37,434 nucleotides of DNA from assembly GCA_031267055.1 (NCBI GenBank), contig JAIRZV010000016.1:1-37434 (forward strand). Reading direction: 5' to 3'. The notes below the pieces were generated by a model. It was not told where the DNA came from, did not search any database, and saw only the letters and a program-made list of their open reading frames with translations. Below are positions 1,566-30,388 of this stretch, piece after piece. Within the stretch, counting starts at the first letter, position 1. Each line of letters starts with the position of its first letter. The stretch comes from Candidatus Margulisiibacteriota bacterium. Its GTDB lineage: Bacteria; Margulisbacteria; Termititenacia; Termititenacales; Termititenacaceae. The position numbers and the translations under genes are program-made.

Positions 1566-1979
1566 ATGGCTAGAAGATTATATAACGGCAATTTAACAGT
1601 AGAGGATAGGATTTTGGCGCGAATTAACCGCTCCAGAGCAGCCGTTTTTGTACCCAAAGATTTTCAGGACATTTCTTCCTATCCGCAGGTTTTGCGTGCC
1701 TTGAAACAGCTTGTGAAAGACAGGAAAATCGTCAGATTTGGCTATGGCTCTTATGCTAAAGCAAAAATAAATCCCTTTGACAACCGCTGCTATCCCGCGC
1801 AGGATATGGTCTCCGTAGTGAGGGAGCTTTTTGACAAACTGGGCATTGACTGGGATTACTCGCAAGCGGTCAAGGATTACAATTTAGGATTGTCGATGCA
1901 GATGCCAATGAAAAATTTTTTTGTGTTAAACACCCGTTTTAACCGTAACTTGAAAGGAGCGGAGGAGCTTTATGCCTGA
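1566..1979 (+). CDS. Type IV TA antitoxin / wHTH regulator (DUF6088, AbiEi-like)
   Basis: VFVPKDF.D..SY.QV.RAL..LV....IVR.GYG.YAK pattern typical of DUF6088 antitoxins. ATG 1566 preceded by AAGGGG is preferred to the track's TTG at 1548. Overlaps the toxin start by 8 bp. Confidence 0.8.
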   Translation: MARRLYNGNLTVEDRILARINRSRAAVFVPKDFQDISSYPQVLRALKQLVKDRKIVRFGYGSYAKAKINPFDNRCYPAQDMVSVVRELFDKLGIDWDYSQAVKDYNLGLSMQMPMKNFFVLNTRFNRNLKGAEELYA

Positions 1980-2886
1980 CCAGCAATTGCTTACACAGGT
2001 AGCACAATTCTATGGCTTTCCAGACATCGAGTTTGTGAACAAAGATTTTTATGTGGTGGAAGTCCTAAAAATGTTATCCACCATTCAGCCGGATGTCTGC
2101 GATTTTATTTTTTCCGGCGGCACCTGTCTGTCCAAGGCATACAATTTGATAGAGCGTATGTCCGAAGATGTGGACATAAAAGTTCGTTTGCAAAATAACA
2201 CTATGAGCGCCGGAGTTCTAAGAAAAACCCTGAGCAAAACTAAGCATCAGATAGAGATTGAATTAAAGAAAATGTTTCCGCGGTTTTCCGAAACTGATAT
2301 TTCCGCTGACCATGGCAACAGGCATATTGCCTTTAATATTACTTATCCTGCTGTCCGAGAAACGCCAGTGTTAAGGAACGGCATCAAACTTGAGCTTACT
2401 CAGTCCACGATTAGGCTTGTGCCGATAGCCAAGCCGATCAGTTCTTTGATTACCACAGCCCGGAAAAATCACCCTGATATTGCGGAGTTCTTATGCGTTG
2501 ATCCCTTGGAAACGCTTGCGGAAAAAATTGTCGCCCTACTGAGAAGGATTTGCGCCAGACTGGAGACCGGCAAGCAAAAATTCGATCCAGCGCTTATCCG
2601 CCATGTTTACGATATTCAGGTTATCTACTCTAAAATTGATACTAAAAAACTTGTGCCATTGGCAAGAGAGATAATCCAGCAAGACGCAGAATCTTATCGG
2701 ACCTGGCATCCAAAATGGTCTGCCGATCCGGCCGTTAACACCAAACTTGCTTTGGCGGAATTGAAACAGAATGAATATGCGGATATGTTTGAGAAATATA
2801 CTAAGGTGATGATTTATGCCAGGAAAATACCGAAATATAGCGAAGCATTAAAAACGGTTGCCGAAATTGCGGAAAATATATTTTAA
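1972..2886 (+). CDS. AbiEii/AbiGii-family nucleotidyltransferase toxin
   Basis: KDFYVVEVL, FSGGTCLSKAY.LI.RMSEDVDIK (GGT and SEDxD motifs), ETLAEKIVAL, RHVYDI; GGAGGAG RBS upstream. Confidence 0.92.
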   Translation: MPDQQLLTQVAQFYGFPDIEFVNKDFYVVEVLKMLSTIQPDVCDFIFSGGTCLSKAYNLIERMSEDVDIKVRLQNNTMSAGVLRKTLSKTKHQIEIELKKMFPRFSETDISADHGNRHIAFNITYPAVRETPVLRNGIKLELTQSTIRLVPIAKPISSLITTARKNHPDIAEFLCVDPLETLAEKIVALLRRICARLETGKQKFDPALIRHVYDIQVIYSKIDTKKLVPLAREIIQQDAESYRTWHPKWSADPAVNTKLALAELKQNEYADMFEKYTKVMIYARKIPKYSEALKTVAEIAENIF

Positions 2887-3085: not shown

Positions 3086-6000
3086 ATGTATCAGTATTTG
3101 CTTAAAGTGATCTCCGATAGAGTAGGTCCGCCGGACAGAAGGGAGATTGCTAACTCAAATGTTCCAAATGCTAATAATGCCGAGACTGGATTAGTAGATG
3201 CATATGGGAGAGAACTGGATGCTCGTTCTCCGGCCACTGTGCGCTTGCGTTTGGCAGACGGGACTATTGTTGACGCTGCGGTTTTAGATTATGTGTATGC
3301 CGGACAACAAGTAAAACTTCTTACCGATGGAGCAGGTCGGCCTTTGTTTATTGCCAAGCCTACCGGTTATGACGTGCACGGAAATATTGAATACGAATTT
3401 ATGGAAGTTGTGCGTGATGCCGCCGGAGCTATTCACGGACAACGTATAAAAAGAATACTACTCTTAAATGCCGACGGATCTATTTATCGAACCATAAAAG
3501 AAGAAAAAATAATCCTTAACGACTCTGATTTATCAAGAGTGGTTGTAATTGGCACAAATACTGCGGCGCGGCAAGCTTCGGAAAATGAGCGAAACGGGTT
3601 TGCCGAGGATGGTACCGAGTTTAATGTTAGCGAGCTAAGTAAAGAAATCGGCACCACTTTTAATCTGCGAGTGTACAAAGATGGAGCCGCCGGGGAAGCT
3701 CCTAGTGTTTACACGCGGATAATAAAATTTGGAAACAGTTCGGTGGAAAATCTGGCTGTTTTTGATAAAAATGGGCTTCTTTACGTGGTTATGCCGGGTA
3801 AGGCCGCGGAAACATGGGAACTTCATAGTGCTAGATTTAAGGATGAAGTTCAGAACATGGTAATTATCGGGGCAGAAGTAACCGGCAGCTCACAGGTGAG
3901 TTTTGCCGGGGCGGTTGTGGGGGCTGAAGCGGCACAGATTATGCCGAAAAATAATGCTGCGGCTGCTACTATTAGCGACAATCATATTGAGCCTTCGGGT
4001 TTGACAACAACTCTCACGCAGGCCGGAGAATATTTTCGAGATAATTATAAAGGTCATTTGGCGATAACCCAAAGTCGTAACCCGGCTCATGCTTTTAGAA
4101 AAGAAATAGGCAAAGAAGGCGGCGATTATGATATTGATATATATCCTATTGTTGAAAGGTTATACGAAAAATCGGCTACAAACAAAGAGCTATTGACAGT
4201 AATAGAGGCGATGAACAAGAGCGAAAAGAAGAAGCTGTTGCACTGGCTAGAAAAGAGAGCCAAGGAACTGGAAAAGAAGGTCGAAGAGACTGAACTGTTG
4301 GGTGGTATTAAAAGATATCCGCTGCGCGCTACAGCAGATATTTTAATGCAGCTATTCTTGCGTACGCTGGCGCCGGAGGCTGGCGTTGGTTCGGAGGCTT
4401 TACTGGGCGCGATTAATCAGATGGTTTACAGTTATTTCGGCGGTTCGATGAATTACTTTTTCAAAAGCATGATGGACTACAGCAAAGAAACTCATTATGC
4501 AGATAAGAGCGGCGGCAGTTCATTTGTGCTTGCTATGCATGGTAATCCAGAATTGGGCAGGTTTTTAGGGACAATACCTAAAGAATACACTAGAGAATAT
4601 GTGAACACGGAAGATGCAGCTGGCCGGTATGGCGATACCGGTATTGTCTTGAAAAAACAAGGAGATGGGAGTATTGATTTCCGTTTTAGTTACGCGACAT
4701 CTTTGCAGGACGCCAGAGAGTTTGGGGTTTACATTAACGGCTTGATTGCCCGCGCCGAGCGTGAGCTGGCTGATCTCAAGACCCGAAATTCTGAATATTC
4801 GGCCAAAGAGCAAGAAATCTTTGCGCGCCGCGAGGCTGAGCTGGAAAAATTGAAAGAGTCTTACGGCAAAGATGCTCATGGCCGAGATATAGGTTATTTG
4901 GCACGGGCCGAGAAACTGCTGGATAATTTTGATAAAGAGCTGGAGGCTTTAACGGCCGAATACAAAGACATAGTTGCAGCGCAGGAGCTGCTTGGCAGTT
5001 TGTATTCTATTCGCTATGCCGCGGACAGGCGTTTTTCTTTGTCCGACGCCGGACGCCGTGACCGAGGCTGGGCCGGAATCTGGTATTTTCAACTGGATAA
5101 AAAGAAACCTTTGACTCTGCCAAAGGAAATACAGGATCATAAGGGTGTATATATTCATGAAAAAAATAATATATTACAAGTCAATTATTTTCTGACTAGA
5201 GCTGAGCTGGATGAGTATTTAGTACCGGCTTTGAAAAATGCTGGTTATAGCAATGATTTTATTGAAAAAGTCCGGATTGGTTTCAAAATTGTTGAGTCTG
5301 CCTATTATGCCGAGATTGCCAATAGAGGGCCTTTCACCGAATTGCCGGCGGATCAGCGGCAAAGACAGGTGACGGAAGTCGCCGCTTTCACCAGCGTGAT
5401 CTATGATCTGCCGATCGAGCATCTGTATATCTCATTTATGCAGGAAGAGTATTCACTGCACAAAGTGACGCTTGCTATTCAGGCCAACAGCCCCGAGGAA
5501 ACGCATAGCGCTAACGCTTATGGCAATGCCGCTCATGCCCGCGAGAGAGAGACCAGAGCTAACGCGGTGAACGATACTATAATGACCAGATACAGCAAGG
5601 GACGTTTGGTGCATTTGCTGGAAGAATTGATGTCCGAGATTAGCAAAAAACATATTGAGATCGGCAGCAATCTGGACAATATACTGGAGTCGATCGTCTA
5701 TATGTTTGACGCCAGTAAAACACAATCCCAAGCCGAGCGTCTGCTGGCGGTCAAGGAAATTGTGTTAAATTTTCTGTCCGGCAATTTGGACACCAAAGAA
5801 AAACGCATCGCCACTTTGCAGGCCGCGATCCAGATGGATGATTTTGTTTCTGCCGACGCGCAGAGAAATGAACTGCTCAGTCATAATTACCGTTTATTGG
5901 GGCTTATATTGGCCGATCAGCATGGCCGCCGTATCCCGTGGAATATGATACTTGATGAAGTGCTGCAGGACCCAAGAATTTTTCCGGCGGACGACCGCGA

Positions 6001-9000
6001 GCGCAGCATAATGACAGTTGGTTTTCAGAAGTTAAATATGTTCCAAAACGAAAATGCCGGTAAACGGGGTGCGGTTCCTTACAAGCATCGAGGAATAGTT
6101 ATTAACGATCTTAACGGATACGATCCCGAAACGGAATTTCCTTTAAGGCAGGCCTTGCGCGAGGTCTTGGCGGAAGAACTGAAAAAAGGCCTGATCCTAG
6201 AGGCGCAGATAGACAATACTGTAAATCTCTTGATCACCGCTACGGAGTGGCAGGAAAAATCCGTTCCGCGTATCGCAGAGATCATGAGCGGTTTTTGGAC
6301 GAACGGCCAATTATCCATAGCCGAACAGGACGAATTGCGCGGGCTGTTGCTCCAGTATTTTGCCGTGGATGCCGATGAGATGCAGCGGATCATCAATGAC
6401 TTGATCGCCAATAAAGAAGCGATTAGAAATCGTGAACAACTTTATCTCGATACAGACATCGGCTCAAATCATATCAATCAGATCAATGCTGAAAACTTGG
6501 GACTTAAAGCCTATCTGGGCGTGTACGGTTACGCGCGTGGCTACAATATTTACACCAAGGGTTCCTCTCGTCCCAATATCAGCGAGGCGCTGGCTGCCAA
6601 ACCAAAAGGAGAGAAATTTAGCGAAAAGGAGATTAAAGAATTATTTGGCGCGGCTTTTATGGATTACATGTCCGGCCGTACCGGATCGGACGGCGGCATA
6701 AATGAAGTAACGCGCTGGATCGAGTCAGAACATCTGCTTCTGGGTTTTTCCGACTTGCGCCGCCAGAATGGTATGCAAAAAGCTAGAGAGAGTCGGATAA
6801 TAGATCCGACTTTTGGCAAGCTTAGGCGCAGGCTTGGTTTGAGCGACATAGATAATCAACTCTATTTTCCTGAAAGTCATGGCGAGTTGTATCAGGAATT
6901 AACGCATGTGAAAGAGACGCAAAAAATTCATAACAACGGCACAATGGCCTCCTTGAGCAAAGATAGCCTTGATCATATTGTTAGGAATTATGACACGATA
7001 GGCTATGAGATCATGTCAGCTGTGGCTGAATATGAAGACACAGCTTCGATCGATGCGACTATCGAGAAACTTAAAGCTGCTGGTTTCAATGTTGTTGATT
7101 TAAAGAATATTGAGCCAGAAACTGATAAGGATAAACAGGAATGTATCTATGATCTTGATAAGAGAACAATTACCGTAACGCCAAATGTGGAAGAGCTACG
7201 CAAAACTATAATCAGAGAATTGGACGGGGACAGCCACAAGATCGTGAGTTACAAAAACGGCATGTTTACAATTGAATTTGATGAGGGCACTGAGGGTATG
7301 GCACTATGGTTAGCGGATAGTCTAGAAGCGAAAGGATACACCGCCCGTGCTAACACTAGATGGGTTACAGTCGAGTCCAATATCAATTTGATAACCGACA
7401 TTTTGGGCGCGGAAGGGGAAAAGGTGAAGTACAACAGAGAATTAACTTTTGTCACCAATTCGCGGGATTTTATAAAGTTGATTCTGGATGAAAAACTAAG
7501 TCAGGACGAAGCGAAAGTGCTGGTAACGATTTTTAATAGTCACGCGGAATATGTTTCGGATTTTAAAGGCGAAGAAGAAAGGAAAATGAATTATTTGTCC
7601 GAGGCTTTGAGACGAAAGGTTGTGGAAGTTCTGAAGGACCCGCACGTTGGTCTTTACGCCAGTCTTGATGATATGGAAAAGTGGATCAATGACAAAAGCA
7701 AGGAAAACCTCTGGTTTGCTGGTCAGACGCACCGCGAGCAAGTCAGAGCTTTTTGGCGAGATAGACGCGCCAAACTGAAAATTAAATTGAATGAAGCTAT
7801 CAAAGAATTTGCTGGGGATCATAAGGCGGATATAGAGGGTTTTACAAGTATAAATGCCGATACTTTAACCGACCGCTATATGGAGGTTATCGAGGACGCG
7901 CAAAATCTGCTGCAGGCCACGGCTGACGGCATGCTGCTGGAGATCAACCGCGCGGTCGATAACTACAAAGTGATCGTCGGCCAAAATATACTGGCGCCTG
8001 TATCCGCCGCGGCTGGCCAAAATTTGACTGTCCAGCAAATCCTGCTGAATATGCAGATCGACGGCGCTAACAGCTCGCGGGCTGAATTAGACGCTGTATC
8101 TTCCGGGATAGATTGGATGGGAACCAATGATAAGAAAATCGTGGATGCGCTGAAATTTTTGCTCAGCGTGCCAAAGAATGTAAATAAGCCAAATCAAAGT
8201 GGAGCAGTAGATCCTAAAAACATTCAACTCTCTTTTGCGCAGTTGGCCAACGGCCGCAAGCTGGATAAAGAAAATCCTGTCGGCTATCTGGCCGGAGCTT
8301 TGAAACTGGCCGCGGCGCATCAGCCCGGACAAAAATATGTTCGTTCCAAACACTGGAATATTTTTGTTTCTGACCTATTGAGTTCGATCAGCGTCAACGG
8401 CGGCAGAGAAGCTAAAAATTATACCGGCGCAGAAGCAACGATCAAGACAGTGGCAGAATTGGCCGAACATGACGAAGTTAAAAAGATTTTAGAACTGCTG
8501 AAAGGTCTTTCGGAAAACGAGATACAAAGTTTGATCGATCAAACTGTCGCTTGGCTGGAAGCTGAAGCGCGCTACAAGGCCAGTTTGGAGCCTATTCTGG
8601 AAGGCAAAGGCATGTCCCGTGACACGGCTACAGTGCTGACGGATATGTTGTTTGCGCAGGATACTGAAGATGGTTATCGAGGAGAGCTGTCAGTTAAAGC
8701 CAATGCTATAGAGTTTGTGGACACCTACCATAAGGATAGTTATCCCAAAGGGGCGCATACCACAGGAGAATATGAAATGCCGGACGGCACAAAAGGAAAT
8801 GGGCTCATACTGAACAATGGTATTTTAAGAGATTATATTAAAGCGAGAATTGACGCTCAGTCCGCGCCTAAACGCGCTGAGCTGGATTCTTGGAAGCGCG
8901 AACAGGAATCCATGTTTAACATTATCCGCATTTCGCCCAAATATGACAGCACTTTTAAGCCGGAAACTTTCAACGGGTCTTACATTGGCCTGACGCCGTT

Positions 9001-16295: not shown

Positions 16296-16320
16296 GAGAG
16301 CCTAAATTTGGAGGAAAGTT

Positions 16321-19300: not shown

Positions 19301-22300
19301 GTGAGCAGCATAAATATACTTTGATCGAAATGTGGACCCGCGCGGCCATGCTGCTGGACACACAGGAAGATCAGCCGCAGGACGCGCTCGACGAACTGCG
19401 CAAAATTTACAACGACAAAGAGTACAATTTATCCAGCGCGCAAAACGCCGCCGCCCGGCTCTGCGCCGACATTATTCGCGGCAATATTGAGGGACTGATT
19501 GCCGCAGACAGGCAGAGAACTACCGGTCCGCGCCTGACCTTTACTCCTGACGATACTTTTAACCCTGACAATATTTCTAAAAATTATTTTACAAAGAACT
19601 TAACGGTTGGCGCTTATACAGACCTGCCGCTTCGTTACGAAAAACAGTTGTTTATTTCTTCACTGCTCAATCGAGCCAAGCTTGGCGATCAACAGGCGGT
19701 TGAGACTTTGCAGGCCTTGCTTGCGCCGGCGCGCGCCGAGCAGACAACTGCTGAAGTTGACAAGGATTTCTTCTCGCAGATCGAGCCGCGCCTGGAGCTG
19801 GATCAAGCCTGGAATTCTCTGAATGATAAATATCAGGGTTATCGGCCTGCGGGTATCAATGCCGAAAATATTGCCAAAAAATATCTTGCTTCTCCATATT
19901 CTGCTGGCACACACGATGAGGCGAAAGACCTGCTCCGTCTGGCCTGGTCGAAAGGCGCTAATCCACAATGGGCTGTCAACGGGACGACTATTACGATCGA
20001 CAATAGGCCAGTACCGATAAAAGGCTATGCAGACCTGGCCGGATTTACCAATAAGCAGGCTCGCTCTGCCGCGGAAAATCTCCTGACGCTTTACGGTTAT
20101 ACTACGGCGACACGCGATGAGAACAAACTGGCCGGATTGATTAAGAATATTCTAACCCCGGGGGTGGCCGACGAAGAATTGTGCTGCAAGGCCCAGTTGG
20201 CCGAAGCCGAACAATACCTGCGGCTCAGCGGCGATCCGGACGCTGTAAAAAATTTACCGGCAGTCCTGTCAGCCTTGGGCTTTCTGTCCGGCGCCAGGAC
20301 CGACCGATACATTCGTCCGGCTATCGAGAAAGCTTTGGAAACCACTTTGGATGTTCTGGGTGATATTTTTACTGAAAATGCCGAAAGCCGTACTTCGGAC
20401 GATTATTATACTTATTGCAATCAGCGTATCCGCTATGTGCTTTTGCAATATGAAAATGCCCCGCAAAACGCTTATGACGCGCTGGAAAAACTGAGCAAGC
20501 CGCTGAATGAAGGTGGGCTGGGCTTGTCCGGCGACAGCCTTACCGGAAAACTCCTGCTGGATACAATTACTGCCAATAGGAATACGTTGCTTCTAGAAAA
20601 CGCGGATAAAATAAATGGCGCCGCAGAAAAGCTGAATTTTGTGCCACAGCCACAGTCGGATCAGGATCAGAAAAAAATTCTTGATGAGTACCTGCATATT
20701 TATGACGAAGATTGCGCCACAAAATTCCAAAAACAATTGCTGATCGGTATCTTGCTGCTTTTGGCCGCTCAGACCCGGATAAGCGGGGCGGAGCCTGCGG
20801 AGTCCGGCGATGATGACGCGGCGGAGATGGCTGTGGAAATACTCCTGGGTCTGCGTCCGAATGATGATCCGCGTAAATTGACTTCCGCAGAACGCTTGGC
20901 GGAAACCGTAGAGTTTATGGGGCAGGAATATTTTGACCTGCTTGAACCGCGCCTGCGTCTGGATTATGCCTGGGCTTTGCTGAAGCCGAATAACCCATCA
21001 GCGGCGGCTTTGAATATTACGGAGCGGATCGCCAGAACAATTATTGAACAGGGTGAGAAAGTCACGGCCAAGATAATTTCTGAAGCGGAAGACCTGCTCC
21101 GTCTGGCCTGGGCTAAGTCTAAAGATAGTGCAGATGGCAAGCCTAAGCCGCAATGGGCTGTCGACGGCAAGAATATTGGCACGGATGACCAGCCGGTGTT
21201 CATAAAAGGTTATGCCGCACTGATCGCTGAACCAACGGATTTTACCGACAAACGAGTGAACGGCGCGTTTGAAAATCTGATCTCACTGTACGGCTACAAT
21301 CCTCTGACGCGCGATGCTGAATCAAATAAAGGCAAATTGGCCGAACTGGTTAAACAATTACAAGAAACTTATGATAGCGCCACGTTCTCTCCACAGCTCA
21401 AACCGGCCGTCAAAAAACTGTACATCAAAGCTCTGCTGGCGCAGGCGGAGACTTATTACCGAGATAAAAATATGATCGACATGGCTAGGGCGCTGGATCT
21501 TTTGTTAGCGAAACCGACTGAGTCTACCGGTGATTACAGCGGCCTGTTATCTGGAGAAATCGGTATTCCAGAAAAAACCGAGGAGTATTATGCCTACTGC
21601 GAGCAGCGCGTCCGTCTGGTTTTGCAACAAGCGCAAGACAACAATAAATCCAAATCGGCGGTGGAGACCGGCAATGATCTGGAAATTTTGCGCGGAGAAT
21701 TAAATCTGATCAGTCCGGAATGGCTCCCGACCAACTTGACCGAAAAATTATTGAATTCTTTTATTACGGTCAACAAGCCGAACATCACACCTCAAGAGAC
21801 CAAGGATGTTATGGCTAATCTGGGTTTTGACATCACAGCAAGCCGCGAGTATTTCGAGAAAACCTGCCGGACCGATTATCAACGCCGCTTATTCATCGGT
21901 ATCTTGTGCAAGCTGGCTGATTCGACCTCAGACGCGCCGAACACCCTTACCCCTGATCAACGCGCGAAGCTTCTTTCGGACGGCGATAACGACATTTATG
22001 AACAGATCGTGGAAGATTTGTTGCTGGACAGCCAAAACCAATACAGGCCCACGACTTTTGCGCAGGATCTTCTGAGTCCGGAATACGCGGCGACGATCCT
22101 GCCGCGTCTGCGTCTGGGCATGGCTTGGCGCGGACTGACCGGTAATGATAATGAATCAGCCGACCAAGTAATTTCCAAAGACTGGTTGGCTGTGGCTGAT
22201 GGAGTGGTCAGTGTTGTTGATGCTTTGTGCGCTGTAAATTTGACGCTGAGAAAAGAACTGCAGAACGAAGTCGATTCTTTGCGTTATTTCGTAATGATCA

Positions 22301-25300
22301 AGAATAAAGATGAAAATAAAGATACACATATAAAGAAAATCAATGAGGCTTTGACTGATTATTACTTGCCGCAAATCGCCGACAATCCGGCAAACATGGA
22401 TGCCAGGACTTTGGTGCTAAGCGCCTATGCCTATGATTTGCAAGAATACTCCGTAGCGTTGAGTTATATCGACGAGAATATTCGATATACTGGCGAAAAT
22501 ATTCGACGTGATGCCGCGCTCGACCCGATTCTTTTCTCTACAGTAGTGGACTGCTGGAGCAAGCAAGAGCCAAAGACGGTAATACCAGAGGTTAGAGTGC
22601 GACAATACATCACTGCTATTCAAACCCAGCCGGAACTTTACGCCAGCGACAAAGCCAAAACCGCGCTGGCCAATATTATCTGTGCTTATGTTTCTCAACA
22701 GTTGGAGGACGGCAATCTGGACGATATCAGTTGGCTGAAAAATATTATTTTGCCGTCAGCCGAACATTCGCCGGGGACGCGTACATATATTGAAGCTAGG
22801 ATCGGTAAGCTCAAAGTTGATGCGTTGATAAAAGAAGGCAGATATGAAGAAGCGCTCAAGCTCTTGCAAGGAACGGATAAAAAGAGTGGAGTTCCGCTAA
22901 GCGGAACGGCTGAAAATGGCGTGGTATATACGCCGGTTAGTTTTAGTTTAAATAGAGAGAATGCGACAACCGGAATTAGCGCGATACTTACAGCAGATAC
23001 TGGTCCAGCTGCGGCGGTTGAAAGTGATGCAAAATCCGGAATTTTGCAAAAATTAGATAGCTTGGAGACAGAATATAATGGCAAGCTGGATTCGCGGCTT
23101 ATTGTTTCCCTGCGCAACGATGTGCGGCGGCAGCAGGCGCAGATCAAAGAGGCGCAGGGTTTTTACACGGAGGCTGTGGCTCGTTTAGACGAAATTGATT
23201 TGAGTTTTATCGATGACGAAAAAGAAAAAACTCAGGCGCAGTTTTATGACGACTTACAGCACGCGCGTATTTTTATTAAGCAGGAAAAATTTGCTGATGC
23301 GCAGAGCATACTAGAAACTCTCCCTGCTCTTGCTGATTCCGCAGAGCTCAAACCCGATGAGCGATGTCTGATTTATTTCAATCTGTTGGACATCGCCCTG
23401 CAAAACCCAGAAGTCGCCTTGGGTTATTTGGCCAAATTAGCAGAATTGTTGTCCGCCGAAAACAATGACGCGCCGGAAAAAAATATTAAACCGGAAACTG
23501 TTTTACTTTATGACTTACAGCGTGTGGCCGCGCGCAAATTGTTGCAAGGACAAATGCCCCCGGACGAAAATATGCCCACGCTGGAAGATGTGGAGCAAAA
23601 AATAAACGCTCTGCCTGCGGGCTACAAACAACAGACTTATAGAAACTTGCTGGCCGAGCTGCAAGCCTACGAACATTTAGAGAGCCGGAGTTATTTACAG
23701 ACAGGCAACGGCGCGATTATTGCGGAATTTGCGTTGCCGCAAACTTTTGAGCCGGCGGACGGTCTGGATTCCGAGGAACACGCGCTGAACATGCGGAAGA
23801 TTTATCTCGATAGCCAGATTACCGCCGGCGGAGCCGCCGCGGCAAACGCTTTGACCAAGATGGATGCGGATCTGGAAAGCGTTGAGACAGCACTCAAAAC
23901 AACAAAAAGCGAAGGTCTGCAAATTGTTCTGCAAAAATATGAAACTGAGTTGCTTTTCCTGAAGTACAGTTTTTTAAGAACTCATTCCCAATATGACGCC
24001 AGCGACAAAAAAATAGAAGGCCGATTGGCTGAAATTAATGAACGGCTGGACAAATCCATAAAAGCCCTGAAAGATTTGGCGCCGTATTCTGCTGTTAATG
24101 TTGAGGAACGGCGGGAAAATCTGCGCGAGTCTTCCAGCGACACGCCGCCCTATGATCTTTTGGAAACGCAGATCAAAGAAGATCTGGATTATTTTTATAA
24201 AGAGAATGGGAAGGATATTCAGCCGGGACAGTTGGAATTCTGGAAATTCAAGAAAAAACTCGACGATCTGTTGAATAATTTTGTCTTGCTGGGCGATAGT
24301 CCGCAGGCCAGCGCCGAGGAAATTATCTTGGCGGTCGACAAACTCTATGATCTACGGCTTGGTCTGGTGGAGTCTGGCGCGGTCTCTGGCGGTCAGCTTC
24401 TGCCCAAGATTGAGGCTTTCCGCGCGCAAATGCCGGCAGGTTTTGTTTTTACCGGTGAGGAAAAGGGCTACGGTTATTACTTGATCTTGAACCTGTTGGA
24501 AAAGGATCTGGCCAAATTCAGCCAAATTGCCAAAAAAGTTTATGACGCGGGTTATTTAAGTAAAAATGAACCGAACGATTATTATGCGCAGTCCAGCGTT
24601 CTGTTGATCGACTTGATAAACACCCAGCTTAAAAACAATGCTGAGTTTAACACTTATATTGGAGCAAACACCCTACCCCAAATTAATTATAAGCCGGATG
24701 GCGACAATCTGGTTACCAAATACGGTGATATGAGTTTGACCACAAATCTAAAGAAAAAAATCGCTTTAGTCGAGGACGAAAATTCTCTAGCCGAGGACGA
24801 AAATTCTCTCAATCTGCCGGCGGAGTTTAAGGCATGGGAGAAAGTGTATAAAAAACGGATAAGCGGCGCGTTGTCCGGAAGCTATAAATACACCGCCGGC
24901 AAGATGTTGCTTGATTATCTCGGCGCCTTGATCCGGCAGCGTGATGAAGGGCGGCCTGTTTCCGGATTGACTACTGTGAATAAAAAGATCAAGTTGTTGT
25001 TTGATTTCCTGAACACTCTGCCGTCGGACAATTTGTTTTCCGACTCGCATTATTATCAGCTCAAAATAGCCGCTTTGAAAATACAATACGCTTCGTCTTT
25101 GTTGTCTAAGGCCGTCGACGCTCGGGACTGGAATACCCCGGCTGCCGGACAGCCCAAACCGCGAAAGATAAGCGATACTTTGCCGGACTATCTGGGCCAA
25201 GCGCGGGATATTCTCGAGGAGCGGCTGGAACACGTCGCGTCGGACAGTGCGGAGCATAAACTGTGCTCGTATTTGCTGTCCGTGCTGAACGGTGAGGACC

Positions 25301-26622
25301 AAGAATTGCCAGAGATTTCCGGTTTGCCGGAAGAAGCTAAATATTTGTATATAGAATTAACTTCTCGTCTGGCCTCCGCACTGCTGGCTCAGCAGCAGTC
25401 CGGTATTCAGCGTTTGGGCGGTGTGGAAAAAAACAAAATCCTCTCACTGACCGACACTATAAAATCCTGGGAACCTGATCATGCCGGGTTGCCGTATCTA
25501 GAACAAAACATAAAAAATGCGACGCAAAAATTGTCCCTTAGTCTGCTGGACAGGCTTGACTTAACCTCCAGCGAAAACACTTCCGTTTGGTGTTCTATTG
25601 ATAATCAGAATGTCCAGCTGGTTAAGAACGGACTTTTCGGCAGTTTGGCGTCTAAGACTGAAAAAATAAATTTAAGTAAAGAGGTTCCTATTATCTGGAC
25701 ACCGTGGAATTTCCTGAACCTGCGGGCGACTCCGGGCGTAGATCTGCAGTGGCTTAAGTCGACGGACAGTATTTCTCAACAAGGCCTATACGAAGGTCTT
25801 TTGTTTACAAAACAAGAGACACATTCATCTGAAACCCCGTTTTTAGAACCGATAATTGTGCCGAAAATTGGCCTTGGTTTTGACCTTATTGCGCCGCAGG
25901 GTTGGCTGCTTGGTTTTTGGCAGCCTTCACTTAGCGGAGATGTTAACTATAGCTATTCGCCGCAACAGCGCTCGCCTTACAATGCCAGTCGTTTTGGTGA
26001 AAAAAATTATTGGGATCATCACTGGTCTTTCGATGTGGCATTCAACAATAAGTTTGCTGTAAACAAATTTTTCGGTTTTGAAATTAATAATGCGCTGCAC
26101 TGGAGCCTGGATAATGGCATGTTGGCTACGGAATCCTACTATTATAAAGAAGAAAAAACGCTGTCCGGCGCTTTCCAATACAATCCGAGGGGACGGGTGA
26201 ATTTCAACTTTGGTGAACTAAGTACGTATTTAGGCGGCGGTTTGTTATTTGAACAGGCCAACAATCTCAATAGCGGCTGGCAATGGGCTGACCGTTTCGG
26301 CTGGGCGGCTGAATTGGGCTGGTCTTATTATAGTCCGCGCTGGTCTGGGAGTGTGGCTGGCAATTTTAGTATACTTGGCAAAGATATTAACACCGGACTG
26401 AATTTCCGTTTTACCCGGCCAAATTGGCCGACCCTGTTGCTGGGCCTTAATTATACGCTGCTGCCCAAAAGGATAACTAACAGCAGTCAGGATATTACTT
26501 ATGATTCTGGTAAGCATACGCTGACGAACACTACAGACACGCGCTCTTCGCAGAATAATCTCAGCGTGTCTCTGAGCGTGGAAATCCCGCTTTCGCCATT
26601 TGACAAACATAACAAAAAATAA
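16321..26622 (+). CDS. Giant (3433 aa) alpha-helical/TPR-like repeat protein with probable C-terminal outer-membrane beta-barrel (BcsC-like layout)
   Basis: GGAGGA RBS at 16310-16315. About 3070 aa of Ala/Leu/Tyr-rich helical sequence with TPR-like segments (LIKEGRYEEALKLL, QGFYTEAVARLDEI, IFIKQEKFADAQSILE). The last ~360 aa show alternating amphipathic strands with aromatic residues (WSFDVAFNNKF, WAAELGWSYY, TGLNFRF, LLLGLNYTL, LSVSLSVEIPL). Confidence 0.65.
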   Translation: MTDVVTGVNNNLNWPEIITNRQTPHIGGLNEDEWKNLLGFTTYVQEDHYDPYIQNIYDEITFLEQNYWQDEKYRSRLTQDLAEINQIISEATKPKTFNYSPRQCLSFCYAAISLNIVLGDKTGNTTYYNNARELLARFDVRHGNYVFRARNEEVTLASHTFDQSLWFVSLVGQLIERGVITPDTEKTNNIVGLLGNTIKTIGNNYINEKNEEKKAELYIRGRYFTAASLYLDAKLERTEATRAAKYKEIYDNLKKDGTSSPLLLVLRLTVLNSLLSTSLDADVVRDYGVDMAELERFFNWTLLPSANAIKQAPNTPRERAIKETDKSYLQAKYNSYVQYYMSRANYLRTAAQQAIKQIKSAANINTAINNAATAVKNFNDFLYVRVTNDLADRENSYFKDFLTSAKQEVEFLELDIVLTRAERGDTSVNLNSLMGRINSLTASTPGNNARRYYFRSRLFSLQIKREPNPERKNIIRRNALAFIIGGQTSDGKPIADNVLTADYNLNNIYRTNNAADNKNLQLNALCEAAELLMDLDRKSEAKDYYAILERPAVSNLTALLSVDPRTNRYAFQSADLNATSARVLFLAASLKDNKTLSEAIANRLIDVFGPAGSPKDETIFNGALALREGFRFDYVLDNLKALKKAGQWAEGLAKIDEEAALFAQNADNQRERAFQLAECNNLAYLYDNGSKPDLSNLAQYTNPASRQRLHYLRMAQLASDKATPSGKDLSGILREIGDLVRWDKNSQKLTFTLSSEYDVRLDTVNKDTQKSPKEYNDEFEFAVIAEYFETLNSILNSEEKTGLRPADPQSAAELTAAFRDYFDRQKARNVNSPSEQDLRFLFFAALLLDGDQSKPKDIYEKIIHCYPLPVPRGYAVSVNGVSQTYYYNSDAKRAYWEAQAGLVNYYAKQKNFAAQKTAFDRIETEYKNRINPQNVAGYAADAAYIKNLYFNALLMQCLSDLEQENRNTAVEHLGAWKTLLADPGIAGQLTPAKREQHKYTLIEMWTRAAMLLDTQEDQPQDALDELRKIYNDKEYNLSSAQNAAARLCADIIRGNIEGLIAADRQRTTGPRLTFTPDDTFNPDNISKNYFTKNLTVGAYTDLPLRYEKQLFISSLLNRAKLGDQQAVETLQALLAPARAEQTTAEVDKDFFSQIEPRLELDQAWNSLNDKYQGYRPAGINAENIAKKYLASPYSAGTHDEAKDLLRLAWSKGANPQWAVNGTTITIDNRPVPIKGYADLAGFTNKQARSAAENLLTLYGYTTATRDENKLAGLIKNILTPGVADEELCCKAQLAEAEQYLRLSGDPDAVKNLPAVLSALGFLSGARTDRYIRPAIEKALETTLDVLGDIFTENAESRTSDDYYTYCNQRIRYVLLQYENAPQNAYDALEKLSKPLNEGGLGLSGDSLTGKLLLDTITANRNTLLLENADKINGAAEKLNFVPQPQSDQDQKKILDEYLHIYDEDCATKFQKQLLIGILLLLAAQTRISGAEPAESGDDDAAEMAVEILLGLRPNDDPRKLTSAERLAETVEFMGQEYFDLLEPRLRLDYAWALLKPNNPSAAALNITERIARTIIEQGEKVTAKIISEAEDLLRLAWAKSKDSADGKPKPQWAVDGKNIGTDDQPVFIKGYAALIAEPTDFTDKRVNGAFENLISLYGYNPLTRDAESNKGKLAELVKQLQETYDSATFSPQLKPAVKKLYIKALLAQAETYYRDKNMIDMARALDLLLAKPTESTGDYSGLLSGEIGIPEKTEEYYAYCEQRVRLVLQQAQDNNKSKSAVETGNDLEILRGELNLISPEWLPTNLTEKLLNSFITVNKPNITPQETKDVMANLGFDITASREYFEKTCRTDYQRRLFIGILCKLADSTSDAPNTLTPDQRAKLLSDGDNDIYEQIVEDLLLDSQNQYRPTTFAQDLLSPEYAATILPRLRLGMAWRGLTGNDNESADQVISKDWLAVADGVVSVVDALCAVNLTLRKELQNEVDSLRYFVMIKNKDENKDTHIKKINEALTDYYLPQIADNPANMDARTLVLSAYAYDLQEYSVALSYIDENIRYTGENIRRDAALDPILFSTVVDCWSKQEPKTVIPEVRVRQYITAIQTQPELYASDKAKTALANIICAYVSQQLEDGNLDDISWLKNIILPSAEHSPGTRTYIEARIGKLKVDALIKEGRYEEALKLLQGTDKKSGVPLSGTAENGVVYTPVSFSLNRENATTGISAILTADTGPAAAVESDAKSGILQKLDSLETEYNGKLDSRLIVSLRNDVRRQQAQIKEAQGFYTEAVARLDEIDLSFIDDEKEKTQAQFYDDLQHARIFIKQEKFADAQSILETLPALADSAELKPDERCLIYFNLLDIALQNPEVALGYLAKLAELLSAENNDAPEKNIKPETVLLYDLQRVAARKLLQGQMPPDENMPTLEDVEQKINALPAGYKQQTYRNLLAELQAYEHLESRSYLQTGNGAIIAEFALPQTFEPADGLDSEEHALNMRKIYLDSQITAGGAAAANALTKMDADLESVETALKTTKSEGLQIVLQKYETELLFLKYSFLRTHSQYDASDKKIEGRLAEINERLDKSIKALKDLAPYSAVNVEERRENLRESSSDTPPYDLLETQIKEDLDYFYKENGKDIQPGQLEFWKFKKKLDDLLNNFVLLGDSPQASAEEIILAVDKLYDLRLGLVESGAVSGGQLLPKIEAFRAQMPAGFVFTGEEKGYGYYLILNLLEKDLAKFSQIAKKVYDAGYLSKNEPNDYYAQSSVLLIDLINTQLKNNAEFNTYIGANTLPQINYKPDGDNLVTKYGDMSLTTNLKKKIALVEDENSLAEDENSLNLPAEFKAWEKVYKKRISGALSGSYKYTAGKMLLDYLGALIRQRDEGRPVSGLTTVNKKIKLLFDFLNTLPSDNLFSDSHYYQLKIAALKIQYASSLLSKAVDARDWNTPAAGQPKPRKISDTLPDYLGQARDILEERLEHVASDSAEHKLCSYLLSVLNGEDQELPEISGLPEEAKYLYIELTSRLASALLAQQQSGIQRLGGVEKNKILSLTDTIKSWEPDHAGLPYLEQNIKNATQKLSLSLLDRLDLTSSENTSVWCSIDNQNVQLVKNGLFGSLASKTEKINLSKEVPIIWTPWNFLNLRATPGVDLQWLKSTDSISQQGLYEGLLFTKQETHSSETPFLEPIIVPKIGLGFDLIAPQGWLLGFWQPSLSGDVNYSYSPQQRSPYNASRFGEKNYWDHHWSFDVAFNNKFAVNKFFGFEINNALHWSLDNGMLATESYYYKEEKTLSGAFQYNPRGRVNFNFGELSTYLGGGLLFEQANNLNSGWQWADRFGWAAELGWSYYSPRWSGSVAGNFSILGKDINTGLNFRFTRPNWPTLLLGLNYTLLPKRITNSSQDITYDSGKHTLTNTTDTRSSQNNLSVSLSVEIPLSPFDKHNKK
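19600..22300 (+). repeat. Intragenic tandem repeat of ~385-390 aa, about 2.3-2.5 copies (approximate bounds)
   Basis: PRL.L..AW starts at 19786, 20947 and 22102 (periods 1161 and 1155 bp). DLLRLAW, PQWAV.G, IKGYA.L, ENL..LYGY...TRD and YY.YC.QR.R.VL.Q each occur twice. A 23-bp identity links 19925-19947 and 21089-21111. Confidence 0.9.
24767..24809 (+). repeat. 21-bp in-frame tandem duplication (EDENSL x2)
   Basis: TAGTCGAGGACGAAAATTCTC followed by TAGCCGAGGACGAAAATTCTC, one mismatch. Confidence 0.9.
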
Positions 26623-26636
26623 AAGAGGTGAGGACA

Positions 26637-28517
26637 ATGTTTAACAAACTTATAAACGACGAGCAAAACTACTTGACCGGCTCCGGCGGCGGCAATCCGC
26701 TAAATTTGCTGAGGTTGGGGTTGGTCAGTCTATTTGGTTCGTTATTTTTATTCGGCTGTCTAAATCCTTTTACGGAAGAGGTGACTAAAGAGACGGAATT
26801 TATCAAGTCGGCGCCGGATCCTGTTCCGGATCATATCGATCAACTGATCCCTTACGGCGATCTTACGGCCAAACTCGCGGCAACCTCCGGCGATACGGTC
26901 GAAGTGACTGTGCGTAGCAGCAGAAAAGAAGACTGGAGCACACAGCAAAAAGAGCTGGCCGGCCTAAAAATTTTGCTGGACAAATACTATAAGAATTCGT
27001 CGAATGCTGAGGAAATTAAATTTACTTTTGAGGGATTGACCGGAGAAAACAAAAAATTTGATTTTAAGCGGTTGATCGTCACACTGCTGGACGCTAAAAC
27101 CAAAAATTACGACCATCTGGGCAATGAGAACCTTGCAGAATACGCTGAGTATATGCGTTCGGCGATTTTTGTGCCTTTGTACAGGATGAATCTGGATCCG
27201 TCGTACAATGAACCGTATGCTTGGGACAATCCGCGGACTTACGGCGTCAGCGTGGATCTGGATAAACAAGAAGTGACACTCGACCTGTCTCAGCGTGATG
27301 TGCTGATTCATAATTTGATGCACCGCGATCCGGATACCAAACTTACGAATATTACTATTTCCGAAATTGGGGATCGCTTCGTTAAATTTTCTGTGCGTGA
27401 CACTAGAGGTCTGCCGCCGGAACAAAAATGGTCGTATCTGGGGCTGGACCTCAAAAACCAATTCGGTATAGACGGTCAGATAATTCGAGCGGACGGCGGT
27501 GTGTCTTTTGCCTTGAAAAACACTCCAGCGGATGTTCAATACCGCGTTGTGCTGGAAAACAGCGCCAAAGAAAAGCTGATATTTTACCCGGAGGAGCATC
27601 CGGGAATTAAAGATAGCAGCTTGATCCCGCTAAGCTACTTCCATGAGGATTTTTTTGCGGCGGAGCTTGGCGCTAAGGCAAATTTTACCGAAGGCGCGTT
27701 GCAGGTGAATTTTGCCGGCAAGAATTCCCGGGTTACGGTTACGGATAAATCTGAGACAAAAACCGCGGTCGACCTGCGCCAAAATTATACTGGACAACAA
27801 AATGATTATTTGAAGCTGACTATCGCCGCTGGCACGGAATTTGACTGGCAGAAATTCCTGTTAAATGTGCGACCGACTTTAAGCTGTATCGACGCTTCCG
27901 GTGTGGAAAAATATTACTCGCTGGACAAACAGCTCTCTTATACCACAGACCAATTGGCCATATTTGCCGTTGAAGACACGGCGCGTGGCTGCTGGAATAT
28001 AAATATCCCGCTCTCCTGCGTCGATACTGGAAATGGTTTGCCGGCTGCCGCGCTTACTGTCACCGGCATCTCTCTGGCCGCTACCGACGAAAATTTTACT
28101 GAGGCGTATAATATTCTGGCGATCGAGTTGCGCGACGATGGCACGGCGCCGGGACATATTATTCCATTCCACGCGGTGGATAGAAATACGCCGTTCATCG
28201 CCGCCGGTATTTCTCTGTGCTCGGAGTCCGCGGCTATGCCGGATCTGGAGTTGCGGGATTTTGTTTTGCAGGCTTCCGCGGCTGAGGGAAAAATCGCGCT
28301 GGATTATTTGCGGCAGGAAAAATCTCTGGTCAGCAAAGGAGAGGCGGTGTCGCTGGTATTTTACACCGGAGATTTTGCCGATAAGGAAGAAAAAGATTTT
28401 CATTCAGACCCAGAGGGTCTGGAGACCGCTTACAGAGTTAAAGCCGATTGGCCTATAGTCGATACGTCTATTGCACAACAACTGCTAGACGAACAGACAG
28501 AACAGGAAGGAGAATAG
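26637..28517 (+). CDS. Putative lipoprotein (~626 aa), beta-rich, possibly carbohydrate-binding; paralog of the next gene
   Basis: ATG 26637 follows GAGGTG; hydrophobic stretch LGLVSLFGSLFLFG-C41 is lipobox-like; shares colinear blocks with 28520..30388. Confidence 0.7.
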   Translation: MFNKLINDEQNYLTGSGGGNPLNLLRLGLVSLFGSLFLFGCLNPFTEEVTKETEFIKSAPDPVPDHIDQLIPYGDLTAKLAATSGDTVEVTVRSSRKEDWSTQQKELAGLKILLDKYYKNSSNAEEIKFTFEGLTGENKKFDFKRLIVTLLDAKTKNYDHLGNENLAEYAEYMRSAIFVPLYRMNLDPSYNEPYAWDNPRTYGVSVDLDKQEVTLDLSQRDVLIHNLMHRDPDTKLTNITISEIGDRFVKFSVRDTRGLPPEQKWSYLGLDLKNQFGIDGQIIRADGGVSFALKNTPADVQYRVVLENSAKEKLIFYPEEHPGIKDSSLIPLSYFHEDFFAAELGAKANFTEGALQVNFAGKNSRVTVTDKSETKTAVDLRQNYTGQQNDYLKLTIAAGTEFDWQKFLLNVRPTLSCIDASGVEKYYSLDKQLSYTTDQLAIFAVEDTARGCWNINIPLSCVDTGNGLPAAALTVTGISLAATDENFTEAYNILAIELRDDGTAPGHIIPFHAVDRNTPFIAAGISLCSESAAMPDLELRDFVLQASAAEGKIALDYLRQEKSLVSKGEAVSLVFYTGDFADKEEKDFHSDPEGLETAYRVKADWPIVDTSIAQQLLDEQTEQEGE

Positions 28518-28519
28518 TT

Positions 28520-30388
28520 ATGTATACCAATCTCAAAGCTTTTGAGGACAAACCCGGACAACCACCTGTTCCGCCGAGCGGCAATCCACCGCCACTGGAC
28601 GACAAATCCAAAACTGTGTTGACAACTGCCGCCATTGTTATTACTGCCGCCACTGTAAACTCTTGTGATTTGACTTTTGGCACGGGCAATAAGGTTTTTG
28701 GAGAGCCGATTCCTAACAAAGAAGACCCCGAAAAGATTCCAGAAATGCCGCCGTATGGTCCGGCTCCAGGAACAGGCGCAGTAGAACATCCTGAAGGCAG
28801 CGGTTCCAAGCCGCAGCCGGAGAGCGAAAGCACGGTTAATTCTTGGGGTAAATCCAATTATGAAATCAAAACCCCTAAAGAACTGGATGTAATATTTTAC
28901 GAGTGTGATAAAGATCATCCGGCTGGTATAAAAATCGATCTGGATAAATACTATCGCTTACATGAAGAAGCTGGCCTTGCGCTGCCGTCTACTATTACCT
29001 TGAGATTTGAAAACATAACAAATTTGACGTCTGAGCAGTTAAAAAACTTTACGCTCACTCTGCTGGACTCCACCGGCGCCAAAGAGGAAAAACCCTCGGA
29101 CGCGCACACCGGTTATGTGCGCTTAAAAGACCAGCGTAGTCTGACGAACTCCAATACAGTTTTTAGCGCGAACACCATGACCGTAACTCTGGATCTGACC
29201 AAGCGCAAAATAGAAAGCGCCAATATTATGATGGATGAAGGCGAAGAGTCTGATCCGACGGACGCCAGTTATATCAGCAATATTAGAAGTAACGCTGTCG
29301 ACAGTTTTAGTTTTGACATGGCGGCCAGACAGACTGACAAGAAAGACTGGGCTTTTACCGGCGTTTATTATTCTAAAAAATTTGATCTGCCTGTGAGCGC
29401 CACGTTCAGTTATGGCTTGTCTGATTTTACGCCGCCGAATAAAGAAGACGCTGGTTATCGGATCGTTTTCAGTTTCGGCAAAAAACAGAATGGCAATTAT
29501 AGAGAATTAGTGTATGACCCGACGGGTTTTACGAATGGCCTGACGACTAACGTGCCGGCTGGACGCTTACAAGAGAGCTACCTGTCCCTGCGCGACGCCG
29601 AGGCGGAAGTTCTGGGCAGCGACAATCTGCGGATAAAGTTTTACGATTATCCTAGTGCGCGCGTGACGGTGAAAGATCAAGCGGCCGAGAACGCTAGGTT
29701 TAAATTTGATCTTTTGCATGAAGGTGATGGGAGCGATCCGACGCGCTTGAGTTATCTCAAAATGAAAGTTAAGAAATATCCAGGCTTTAGCAAAGAGGAT
29801 TTTCTGTCCAAAGTTAACCCCGGTTTAATATTAGACGATGGCAAAGAATGCCCTGCTGGTATCAGCTCTGGAGATATGGATTATGTTTTGGCGACCGATC
29901 TGGGAGATAGTTATGAATTGGCTATACCATTATTGCTTATGAACAATATTAATATTGTAGATCAATGTACATTAGGGGGAGTGTTTTTTAGTAGTGTGGC
30001 TGGCCGCAATGAGTTTGAGATCGCGGATATAAAAATCTCCGCGGTCGAGCAGGGGGAGCGTAAATTGGCTTTATCTAAGACTGACCGTACTGGTTTTACC
30101 GGCTTTGGTGTGGCTTTGGATAATAGCGGCGCGCAGACTGGAATAACTCTGAGCGGCCTGAAGGTCGGCTCTCAGGAGATCAATGCCCCGCCCGCGGATC
30201 TGGACAGCGAAGTCCAGGCTATTACATTGACGACTAATACGGGTTATTATCTGAATGACGATGAGGAGCAGTCTTTTATCAGCACTGGACTTATAAATTT
30301 TAAGCTCAAGCTGCCTGAGGAAACCCAAGGTGCGTTTTTCAGAAGTGAGGTCAAGAGCCAGACTGAAGAGACTGGATCGTCTGAATGA
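28520..30388 (+). CDS. Putative lipoprotein (~622 aa), paralog of the preceding gene
   Basis: Start revised to ATG 28520 (AGGAG 28508-28512; 2 nt after the upstream stop). Pro-rich leader, then VLTTAAIVITAATVNS-C49, then a Pro/Gly/Glu linker. Blocks TLLD, VTLDL, W.F/Y.G, YR.V, RVTV.D, YLK, F...FL..V.P.L and IPL are shared with the upstream paralog. Confidence 0.7.
   Translation: MYTNLKAFEDKPGQPPVPPSGNPPPLDDKSKTVLTTAAIVITAATVNSCDLTFGTGNKVFGEPIPNKEDPEKIPEMPPYGPAPGTGAVEHPEGSGSKPQPESESTVNSWGKSNYEIKTPKELDVIFYECDKDHPAGIKIDLDKYYRLHEEAGLALPSTITLRFENITNLTSEQLKNFTLTLLDSTGAKEEKPSDAHTGYVRLKDQRSLTNSNTVFSANTMTVTLDLTKRKIESANIMMDEGEESDPTDASYISNIRSNAVDSFSFDMAARQTDKKDWAFTGVYYSKKFDLPVSATFSYGLSDFTPPNKEDAGYRIVFSFGKKQNGNYRELVYDPTGFTNGLTTNVPAGRLQESYLSLRDAEAEVLGSDNLRIKFYDYPSARVTVKDQAAENARFKFDLLHEGDGSDPTRLSYLKMKVKKYPGFSKEDFLSKVNPGLILDDGKECPAGISSGDMDYVLATDLGDSYELAIPLLLMNNINIVDQCTLGGVFFSSVAGRNEFEIADIKISAVEQGERKLALSKTDRTGFTGFGVALDNSGAQTGITLSGLKVGSQEINAPPADLDSEVQAITLTTNTGYYLNDDEEQSFISTGLINFKLKLPEETQGAFFRSEVKSQTEETGSSE

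Follow-up and report, generated by a model that had tools for sequence, protein, structure and literature searches.

Shared N-terminal leaders on the exported subunits of a giant-protein operon of Candidatus Termititenax, possibly extended lipoprotein signal peptides

The proteins encoded by genes 1 to 4 of a giant-protein operon of Candidatus Termititenax (Margulisbacteria), an uncultured termite-gut symbiont, begin with a related N-terminal tag, which in genes 2, 3 and 4 is the first part of a long leader ending in a hydrophobic segment and a Cys. The operon lies on a 37,434-nt stretch of DNA (hereafter, the window) that is one entire contig of a 1.54-Mb draft genome (174 contigs, 74% complete). 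The leader is genuine, being translated, under selection and common to the operon proteins, and in its complete form (tag, GGxPP, hydrophobic region and Cys) it is specific to the operon in eight related genomes. We favour, with a probability of about one half, the reading that these leaders are extended, bipartite signal peptides of the Sec/signal peptidase II (SPII) type, whose cytoplasmic tag acts as a handle. In the following, the genome of the window is named G000, its relatives G001, G003, G004, G005, G006 and G007, and a distant genome G016. Relatives of the same genus are Candidatus Termititenax aidoneus and Ca. T. persephonae, and relatives of gene 2 also occur in Ca. T. dinenymphae.

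Leaders of genes 1 to 4 and their start sites

The four genes, all on the forward strand like every gene of the window, and their leaders are located as follows.

3086..11635, forward strand: gene 1, a giant protein of 2849 residues with no Pfam family and without N-terminal signal peptide
3086..3169, forward strand: N-terminal tag and PP motif of gene 1, MYQYLLKVISDRVGPP...I.N.NVPN, the best-conserved stretch of the protein
11628..16295, forward strand: gene 2, 1555 residues, with a domain like those of glycoside hydrolase family 8 (GH8)
11628..11789, forward strand: leader of gene 2 (residues 1-54), with MNKWLTKILSD, GGGSKPP, basic residues, hydrophobic region and YQC
26637..28517, forward strand: gene 3, a lipoprotein of 626 residues with beta-sandwich domains and no known family
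26637..26759, forward strand: leader of gene 3 (residues 1-41), with MFNKLIND, GSGGGNP, R26, hydrophobic region and the lipobox LFGC
28520..30388, forward strand: gene 4, 622 residues, a paralogue of gene 3
28520..28666, forward strand: leader of gene 4 (residues 1-49), with MYTNLKAFED, a Pro-rich spacer, K29/K31, hydrophobic region and VNSC

Translation reproduced the features described in an earlier sequence-only reading of the window, namely the N-termini MYQYLLKVISD (3086), MNKWLTKILSD (11628), MFNKLIND (26637) and MYTNLKAFED (28520), the linkers VGPP, GGGSKPP, GSGGGNP and PGQPPVPP and, numbered from the ATG codons, the cysteines C54 of gene 2, C41 of gene 3 and C49 of gene 4. In gene 1 the tag and PP motif are followed by neither a hydrophobic segment nor a Cys.

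All four ATG codons are preceded, 7-8 nt upstream, by a Shine-Dalgarno site, the ATG of gene 2 overlapping the stop of gene 1 by 8 nt and that of gene 4 lying 3 nt past the stop of gene 3. When four genomes were compared, such a site was present at 10 of the 11 starts of genes 2, 3 and 4. Among internal in-frame ATG, GTG and TTG codons, the sole one with a Shine-Dalgarno sequence is the TTG at codon 29 of gene 3, leaving a 13-residue peptide, and several orthologues (for example, gene 3 of G006 and gene 4 of G003) contain no internal start able to yield a signal peptide. The sequence-only reading had itself proposed that it would fall if the true starts lay downstream, for instance at M20 of gene 2. 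Since internal starts are devoid of Shine-Dalgarno sequences and some orthologues have no usable one, this objection fails and the upstream starts hold. Two public gene calls, P0010 (gene 2) and P0008 (a relative of gene 3), begin at codons upstream of these starts (MEVAIMNKW... and MLACFW...MFNK..., respectively); they are probably mis-started, these codons showing neither a Shine-Dalgarno sequence nor conservation. The codons of the tag vary synonymously, and an RNA-level cause of the shared 5' ends was rejected because synonymous positions vary between genes.

Conservation within each gene family

The leader is kept in orthologues down to ~20% identity. A word-based search returned two relatives of gene 3, with 61% and 41% identity, both retaining the arrangement M-x-x-K-I-I-N-D-E...GGG-x-P...Cys, while a profile search of 1.84 billion proteins collected only 19 representatives of the gene 3/4 family, whose full-length members open with MY.K.I or a similar sequence and continue with a stretch of Gly and Pro, then a hydrophobic core and lastly a Cys. 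In the alignment of this family (17 rows, mean column identity of 27%), K4 is kept in 16/17 rows, ranking 10th among 533 scored columns, I6 in 14/17, G18, G19 and P21 in 13/17 each, and C41 in all 17, the residues shown before this Cys being G, S or A.

A leader of the same kind is present in six orthologues of gene 2 (27-68% identity), and in five of the six a Cys closes the hydrophobic core. The Cys is missing from the remaining orthologue, P0012, which retains the tag and a hydrophobic segment. Another one, P0011, has a leader ~13 residues longer than that of the window, with the extra residues after the tag and the Cys at ~67 versus 54.

Orthologues of gene 1 were found in G001, G003 and G007, and their tag is conserved across four genomes and two genera despite an overall identity between orthologues of 27-32%. 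The first 100 columns of the gene 1 alignment contain 20 positions identical in all three sequences, concentrated in the first 28 residues; the nearest count in later stretches is 19, reached twice only. The homologue in G007, which belongs to another genus, begins MWYLFKLLSDTDSIPP. Further orthologues of gene 1 were sought in metagenomes by an alignment-based scan, where none of 174 pattern matches was confirmed, and a degenerate DNA pattern for the tag gave one chance match only in metagenomes (L026). A word-based search with residues 1-600 of gene 1 matched nothing except the gene 1 protein itself.

Likeness among the four leaders

A single consensus, MxxKxIxxxD..P..GGxPPL..(hydrophobic)..GC, aligns 20 leaders from the families of genes 2, 3 and 4. 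The likeness extends to the tag of gene 1: a profile derived solely from the four gene 1 tags places gene 2 second among 1344 N-termini of G000, at the same offset, and gene 3 41st, and one built from the gene 3/4 relatives outside the window alone places gene 2 10th and gene 1 23rd. These 1344 N-termini are crude gene calls (longest non-overlapping open reading frames with the start chosen by Shine-Dalgarno sequence and codon), to which gene 2 was added by hand and from which calls scoring below 3 were left out.

The sequence-only reading had assigned to all four proteins a motif of Lys, two hydrophobic residues, any residue and Asp. The residues are as stated there, but KAFED of gene 4 is out of register with the family consensus M-x-x-K-x-I. 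The motif was more frequent than expected by chance: Lys, two hydrophobic residues, any residue and Asp or Glu occur within the first 12 residues in 25 of the 1344 gene calls, including four of the six large operon genes; the hypergeometric probability of this enrichment is 1.4e-6, for a regular expression defined post hoc. The description, in that reading, of the carriers as otherwise unrelated does not apply to genes 3 and 4, which are paralogues (22% identity by BLASTP, E 6e-7, and one profile finds both). Thus, the four leaders are not independent cases, and genes 3 and 4 count once.

Signal-peptide features and export machinery

Each leader of genes 2, 3 and 4 ends, as judged from its residues, in a signal readable by the Sec/LspA machinery of the cell itself. 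A basic n-region with a hydrophobic core of the ~10-20 residues typical of Sec/SPII signals is found in all three, as basic KPPRKPWPPLAK followed by hydrophobic AGIAVAGLGAVGVAG in gene 2, R26 followed by LGLVSLFGSLFLF in gene 3, and KSK followed by TVLTTAAIVITAATV in gene 4. A small residue precedes the invariant Cys in the lipoboxes of gene 3 (LFGC) and gene 4 (VNSC). The positions of the Cys (41, 49 and 54) are outside the usual range of ~15-35, this displacement being the finding itself.

Export machinery was searched in five family genomes, G000 (74% complete), G001 (93%), G003 (89%), G005 and G006, three of the five being at least 92% complete. LspA was found in all five, G000 included, and so was a secretin, and each of them encodes one full-length SecA with no second copy found. 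Lgt was found in three, including the operon-bearing G001, with G003 among those without a match. FlhA (FHIPEP) was also found in three; it was not found in the operon-bearing G000 and G001, and it is present in G005, where three different queries did not find the operon. Searches for TssC of type VI secretion systems, VirB4 of type IV secretion systems and the C39 peptidase (PF03412) of peptidase-containing ATP-binding cassette transporters (PCAT) gave no match in any of the five genomes. Since these genomes are incomplete, the absences are provisional. Even with this limit, nothing was found in favour of the dedicated export pathway that the sequence-only reading had proposed and had suggested examining through type III/flagellar or type IV secretion machinery.

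Occurrence of the full leader and of the short tag

When a profile of the 20 leaders was run over eight family genomes, the significant matches were genes 2, 3 and 4 and their homologues only, among them a new one in G007 and another in G004; all further matches had E values of at least 0.03. Ordinary lipoprotein candidates of the window's genome have their Cys at positions 17-24 in 27 of 38 cases. Two others of G000, C94:2793 and C156:204, have it at 61 and 74, respectively, with a strong Shine-Dalgarno sequence and no tag, the latter adjoining a tagged gene (MYTKNI...).

The short tag has a different distribution. In G000 the pattern M-[YF]-x-K-x-I opens 12 of 808 confident starts versus 0.97 expected from column frequencies, a ~12-fold excess, and it is the top of 210 permuted placements, the next best having 5. 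Its carriers are mostly unrelated, with one trio and one pair of paralogues, and those without a signal peptide include a SNF2 helicase, a 1591-residue ABC1-kinase protein, a MuF-like protein and several family-less proteins (carrier loci are, for example, C11:6893, C134:9486, C83:9144, C173:2722, C16:4506 and C141:7236). Another match, possibly a chance one, is SMC. With a DNA form of the tag anchored on the Shine-Dalgarno sequence, 10, 8, 2, 1 and 0 hits were obtained in G000, G001, G005, G007 and G016, respectively, versus 1, 3, 1, 1 and 0 for a control shifted by one codon, the single hit of G007 being an operon lipoprotein; a clear excess is therefore limited to G000 and G001. In one family of carriers the tag persists between species, as MYRNLIA in G000 and as MYRKIII and MYRKVIA in G001. 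The presence of the tag on proteins without signal peptides indicates that by itself it is no export signal. Regarding the suggestion that the motif might mark a larger class of proteins, the short tag is indeed over-represented genome-wide, but the full leader is confined to the operon lipoproteins.

Proposed function of the leader

The C-terminal half of the leader, with its basic residues, a hydrophobic core of 13-20 residues and the Cys, has the makeup of a lipoprotein-type Sec signal, which the Sec translocon, Lgt and LspA of the cell itself would read, clearly so for genes 3 and 4, whereas gene 2 may remain an uncleaved signal anchor that keeps its tag. The N-terminal half comprises the tag of 8-11 residues (consensus M-x-x-K-x-I-x-x-x-D) and the flexible GG-x-P-P spacer, and it would remain cytoplasmic during export, being discarded with the signal peptide in the case of genes 3 and 4. 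A putative factor would read the tag before or during export and, in this way, time or localise the delivery of subunits at the assembly site of an envelope complex. Considering that (i) the full leader is found only on the exported subunits of the operon, and (ii) a related tag with a PP motif caps gene 1, we infer that the tag acts as a cytoplasmic handle. Gene 1 has three hydrophobic clusters near its C-terminus (~2140-2185, 2325-2390 and 2775-2815), each of which appears hairpin-like by eye; with such a topology most of the protein, tag included, would lie in the cytoplasm.

Should the tag be such a handle, it would offer a simple way to study how the export of very large envelope complex subunits is coordinated. 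Moreover, annotation pipelines may miss lipoproteins whose signal is preceded by 20-35 additional residues, or may assign them a wrong start.

Other operon products and neighbouring genes

The remaining features of the window are listed below.

First gene of the window, before the operon, forward strand: LL-diaminopimelate aminotransferase
1548-2886, forward strand: DUF6088 gene and AbiEii nucleotidyltransferase gene, overlapping and directly upstream of the operon, an AbiE-type toxin-antitoxin-like pair
16321..26622, forward strand: gene 5, 3433 residues, with no tag and no signal peptide
30449..37333, forward strand: gene 6, 2294 residues, with CarboxypepD_reg-type repeats, untagged and with a short signal peptide of the ordinary kind

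Gene 6 thus provides a contrast case, as it is untagged and carries an ordinary short signal peptide. The ~360 C-terminal residues of gene 5 were modelled as an outer-membrane-type beta-barrel (predicted local distance difference test, pLDDT, of 71), for which Foldseek returned FadL, porins and BcsC at low template-modelling (TM) scores of 0.3-0.4. Gene 5 is devoid of an N-terminal signal peptide in three genomes (that of the window, G001 and G003) despite ending in a barrel, so some unconventional export may exist in the operon. Several other giant proteins are also without signal peptides.

Gene 2 matches the Pfam GH8 family (PF01270) with an E value of 3e-6 and 26.9 bits, against a cut-off of 24. 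This GH8 (BcsZ-type) match is weak, and together with the helical repeats and barrel of gene 5 it bears a loose resemblance to systems for polysaccharide export; among the genes of the window no glycosyltransferase was noticed. Neither gene 2 nor gene 5 has a sequence match in the PDB. The AlphaFold2 model of gene 3 (pLDDT of 81.8) displays several beta-sandwich domains, with no fold match in the PDB (TM score <= 0.20). For the C-terminal third of gene 1, a search of the protein atlas gave scores below 0.8, which is noise level.

The 1.54-Mb draft encodes at least eight predicted proteins of more than 2,500 residues, three of them above 4,200 (on C144, C55, C59, C1, C168, C152 and others), and the first 200 residues of the 2617-residue PKD/transglutaminase protein on C152 contain no signal peptide. 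In the relatives, frames of 5147 (G003) and 4713 (G005) residues enclose a SecA_DEAD-like stretch of 60-64 bits (G003:C19:10503-11075 and G005:C126:37238-37798), being giant proteins with a helicase-type motor domain.

Weighing of alternative explanations

Several observations weigh against extended signal peptides with a cytoplasmic handle. The reader of the tag is putative only. The lipobox of gene 2 is poor, with Q before the Cys (YQC), and because of this and of the orthologue without Cys it is doubtful whether LspA cleaves it. In G000, at its 74% completeness, no Lgt was found. Residues 1-66 of the gene 3 model have pLDDT values below 50 and are unstructured save for the hydrophobic helix. 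The tag of gene 4 is weak, ranking 165th of 1344 with the gene 1-tag profile, and the tags have modest hydrophobic moments (0.18-0.49); an amphipathic-helix reading of the tag was dropped on the grounds that these moments are modest and inconsistent. Finally, the short tag M-[YF]-x-K-x-I of G000 is also carried by unrelated proteins without signal peptides, so it may serve a general N-terminal function apart from export.

This last point leads to a serious, although less likely, alternative in which the tag is a lineage-wide N-terminal element read by a housekeeping cytoplasmic factor, with no specific role in export. It might be a degron of a Clp-type protease (its resemblance to ClpX N-terminal motifs is putative), a chaperone site or an early-translation effect, and in the case of lipoproteins it would remove or retain precursors left unexported. 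Such a role agrees with the excess of the tag over expectation and over every other placement, with carriers that are mostly unrelated and in some cases have cytoplasmic-type domains, with the synonymous variation of its codons, with the DNA-pattern counts of G000 and G001 relative to the shifted control, and with the carrier family that keeps the tag in both genomes. However, the pattern is rare in G005 and in G007, whose only hit belongs to the operon, and absent from the distant G016. Abundant housekeeping proteins are not among the carriers examined (the GroEL-like gene begins MAKQLV), which argues against a plain expression effect, and the conserved GG-x-P-P spacer, the loss of a short MKK-type signal and the operon-specific full leader are left unexplained. 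It is unlikely, in turn, that the hydrophobic segments are uncleaved signal anchors and that tag and spacer are permanent cytoplasmic tails, which would bind each other or the part of gene 1 that lies in the cytoplasm, thereby linking periplasmic subunits with a platform in the inner membrane. The Q before the Cys of gene 2, the hydrophobic segment without Cys of P0012, the same tag at the predicted cytoplasmic N-terminus of gene 1 and the fact that gene 2 is the best match of the genome to that tag, at the same offset, are all consistent with anchors. Nevertheless, the Cys is kept in 17/17 members of the gene 3/4 family with a small residue (G, S or A) before it, the signature of LspA processing, LspA is encoded in all five genomes, and the docking of tails on gene 1 is itself putative.

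A quite improbable extension, in which the tag would be an address label of both subunits and substrates, regards the operon as a novel envelope-spanning machine for holding or acting on a spirochete partner: gene 1 would be its inner-membrane and cytoplasmic platform, genes 2-4 its lipoproteins, gene 5 a protein of helical repeats with an outer-membrane barrel at its end, and gene 6 a fibre at the surface, while lineage-specific tagged proteins without signal peptides would be its substrates. Termititenax is reportedly attached to spirochetes, going by the title of a paper. This attachment, the conservation of the operon in relatives named Candidatus Termititenax, and the absence of a signal peptide from the barrel-ended gene 5 in three genomes and from other giant proteins could also be taken in favour of the speculation, made in the sequence-only reading, that the leader directs a dedicated non-Sec route, possibly into a host or prey whose Sec/Lgt system reads the internal signals. 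Nothing was found in support of such delivery, which we judge highly improbable: TssC, VirB4 and C39 were found in none of the five genomes, only one full-length SecA is encoded per genome, FlhA was found where the operon, with the queries used, was not (G005) and not in G000 or G001, the signals follow the normal order of basic residues, hydrophobic core and Cys, and the genomes encode their own LspA and, in three of the five, an Lgt. To our knowledge, there is no precedent for the Sec system of a recipient reading an injected precursor. Scarcely credible, lastly, is an artefact of downstream true starts or of chance resemblance. Plausible short signals would result from starts at M20 of gene 2 and at the TTG codons 24 and 27 of gene 3, and the motif, a short one, was drawn up with the four sequences already in view. 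On the contrary, those internal starts have no Shine-Dalgarno sequence, gene 3 of G006 and gene 4 of G003 have no usable one, the tag occupies some of the best-conserved columns of the family alignment, and cross-family profiles rank the operon proteins 2, 10, 23 and 41 of 1344.

Comparison with known N-terminal signals

When the N-terminal 60 residues of each of the four proteins were scanned against Pfam and NCBIfam at E <= 10, no family was returned, although HMMER filters can miss very weak matches; as far as these models go, and with no paper search aimed at the leader, no description of the feature was found. For the same lack of a model match, membership in the ESPR (extended signal peptide region), YSIRK and KxYKxGKxW families was rejected.

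Other classes were discarded on the features of the leader. In twin-arginine (Tat) signals such as that of TorA, an extended cytoplasmic n-region is bound before export by a dedicated chaperone, TorD. The leaders share such an extended n-region, and their putative reader would likewise be a dedicated cytoplasmic protein. A Tat assignment was nonetheless rejected, as S/T-R-R-x-F-L-K was seen in none of the 20 leaders by eye, with neither a formal scan nor a search for TatC; adjacent arginines occur in a few of them (LLRRVRM in gene 2 of the window, RLRRG in gene 3 of G003 and IFRRIV in gene 3 of G006). Type IV prepilin (class III) signals were rejected as well, the same inspection by eye of the 20 leaders revealing no G followed by F/M-T-L-x-E and no Glu at +5. 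Double-glycine leaders have the consensus LSxxELxxIxGG. They also comprise ~20 residues ending in GG, and LSDEELL...GGG of gene 2 loosely recalls their consensus, but a double-glycine/PCAT assignment was rejected considering the misfit in register, the hydrophobic core and lipobox that follow the GG, and the lack of C39 in the five genomes.

Closer in design are the extensions of Sec signals. KxYKxGKxW motifs characterise the extended signals of serine-rich adhesins, which are exported by the accessory SecA2/SecY2. The points of likeness are the length of the signal peptide, its conserved motif at the N-terminus, surface proteins of very large size as carriers, and a dedicated reader, putative in the present case. 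They differ in that only one full-length SecA per genome, in five genomes, and no match to a hidden Markov model (HMM) were found here. YSIRK-G/S is a short conserved motif in the n-region of the Sec signals of Gram-positive surface proteins, thought to direct the site of secretion and not a different translocon. It differs from the tag in the motif itself, in its monoderm hosts, in its non-lipoprotein carriers and in the absence of an HMM match.

The ESPR (PF13018) provides the nearest likeness, being a conserved extension before a complete Sec signal on large envelope proteins with the layout n1-h1-n2-h2-c. It is described as a conserved 25-residue extension that is no signal alone and that affects the rate of export and periplasmic folding or assembly (PMC8151025). 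The ESPR precedes autotransporter signals in Proteobacteria, whereas the leaders of this margulisbacterial operon precede lipoprotein signals, contain a Gly/Pro spacer and have a related tag on a non-exported protein; moreover, genes 1-4 are not type V secretion proteins, no autotransporter or two-partner secretion domain having been found in them. By analogy with the ESPR and YSIRK extensions, the tag would modulate Sec export without being a targeting signal. Signal peptides extended by a conserved N-terminal module have been described chiefly in autotransporters, as the ESPR, and in Gram-positive adhesins; here this design is found on lipoproteins that an uncultured margulisbacterial symbiont encodes in an operon of giant proteins, where a non-exported partner bears a related tag.

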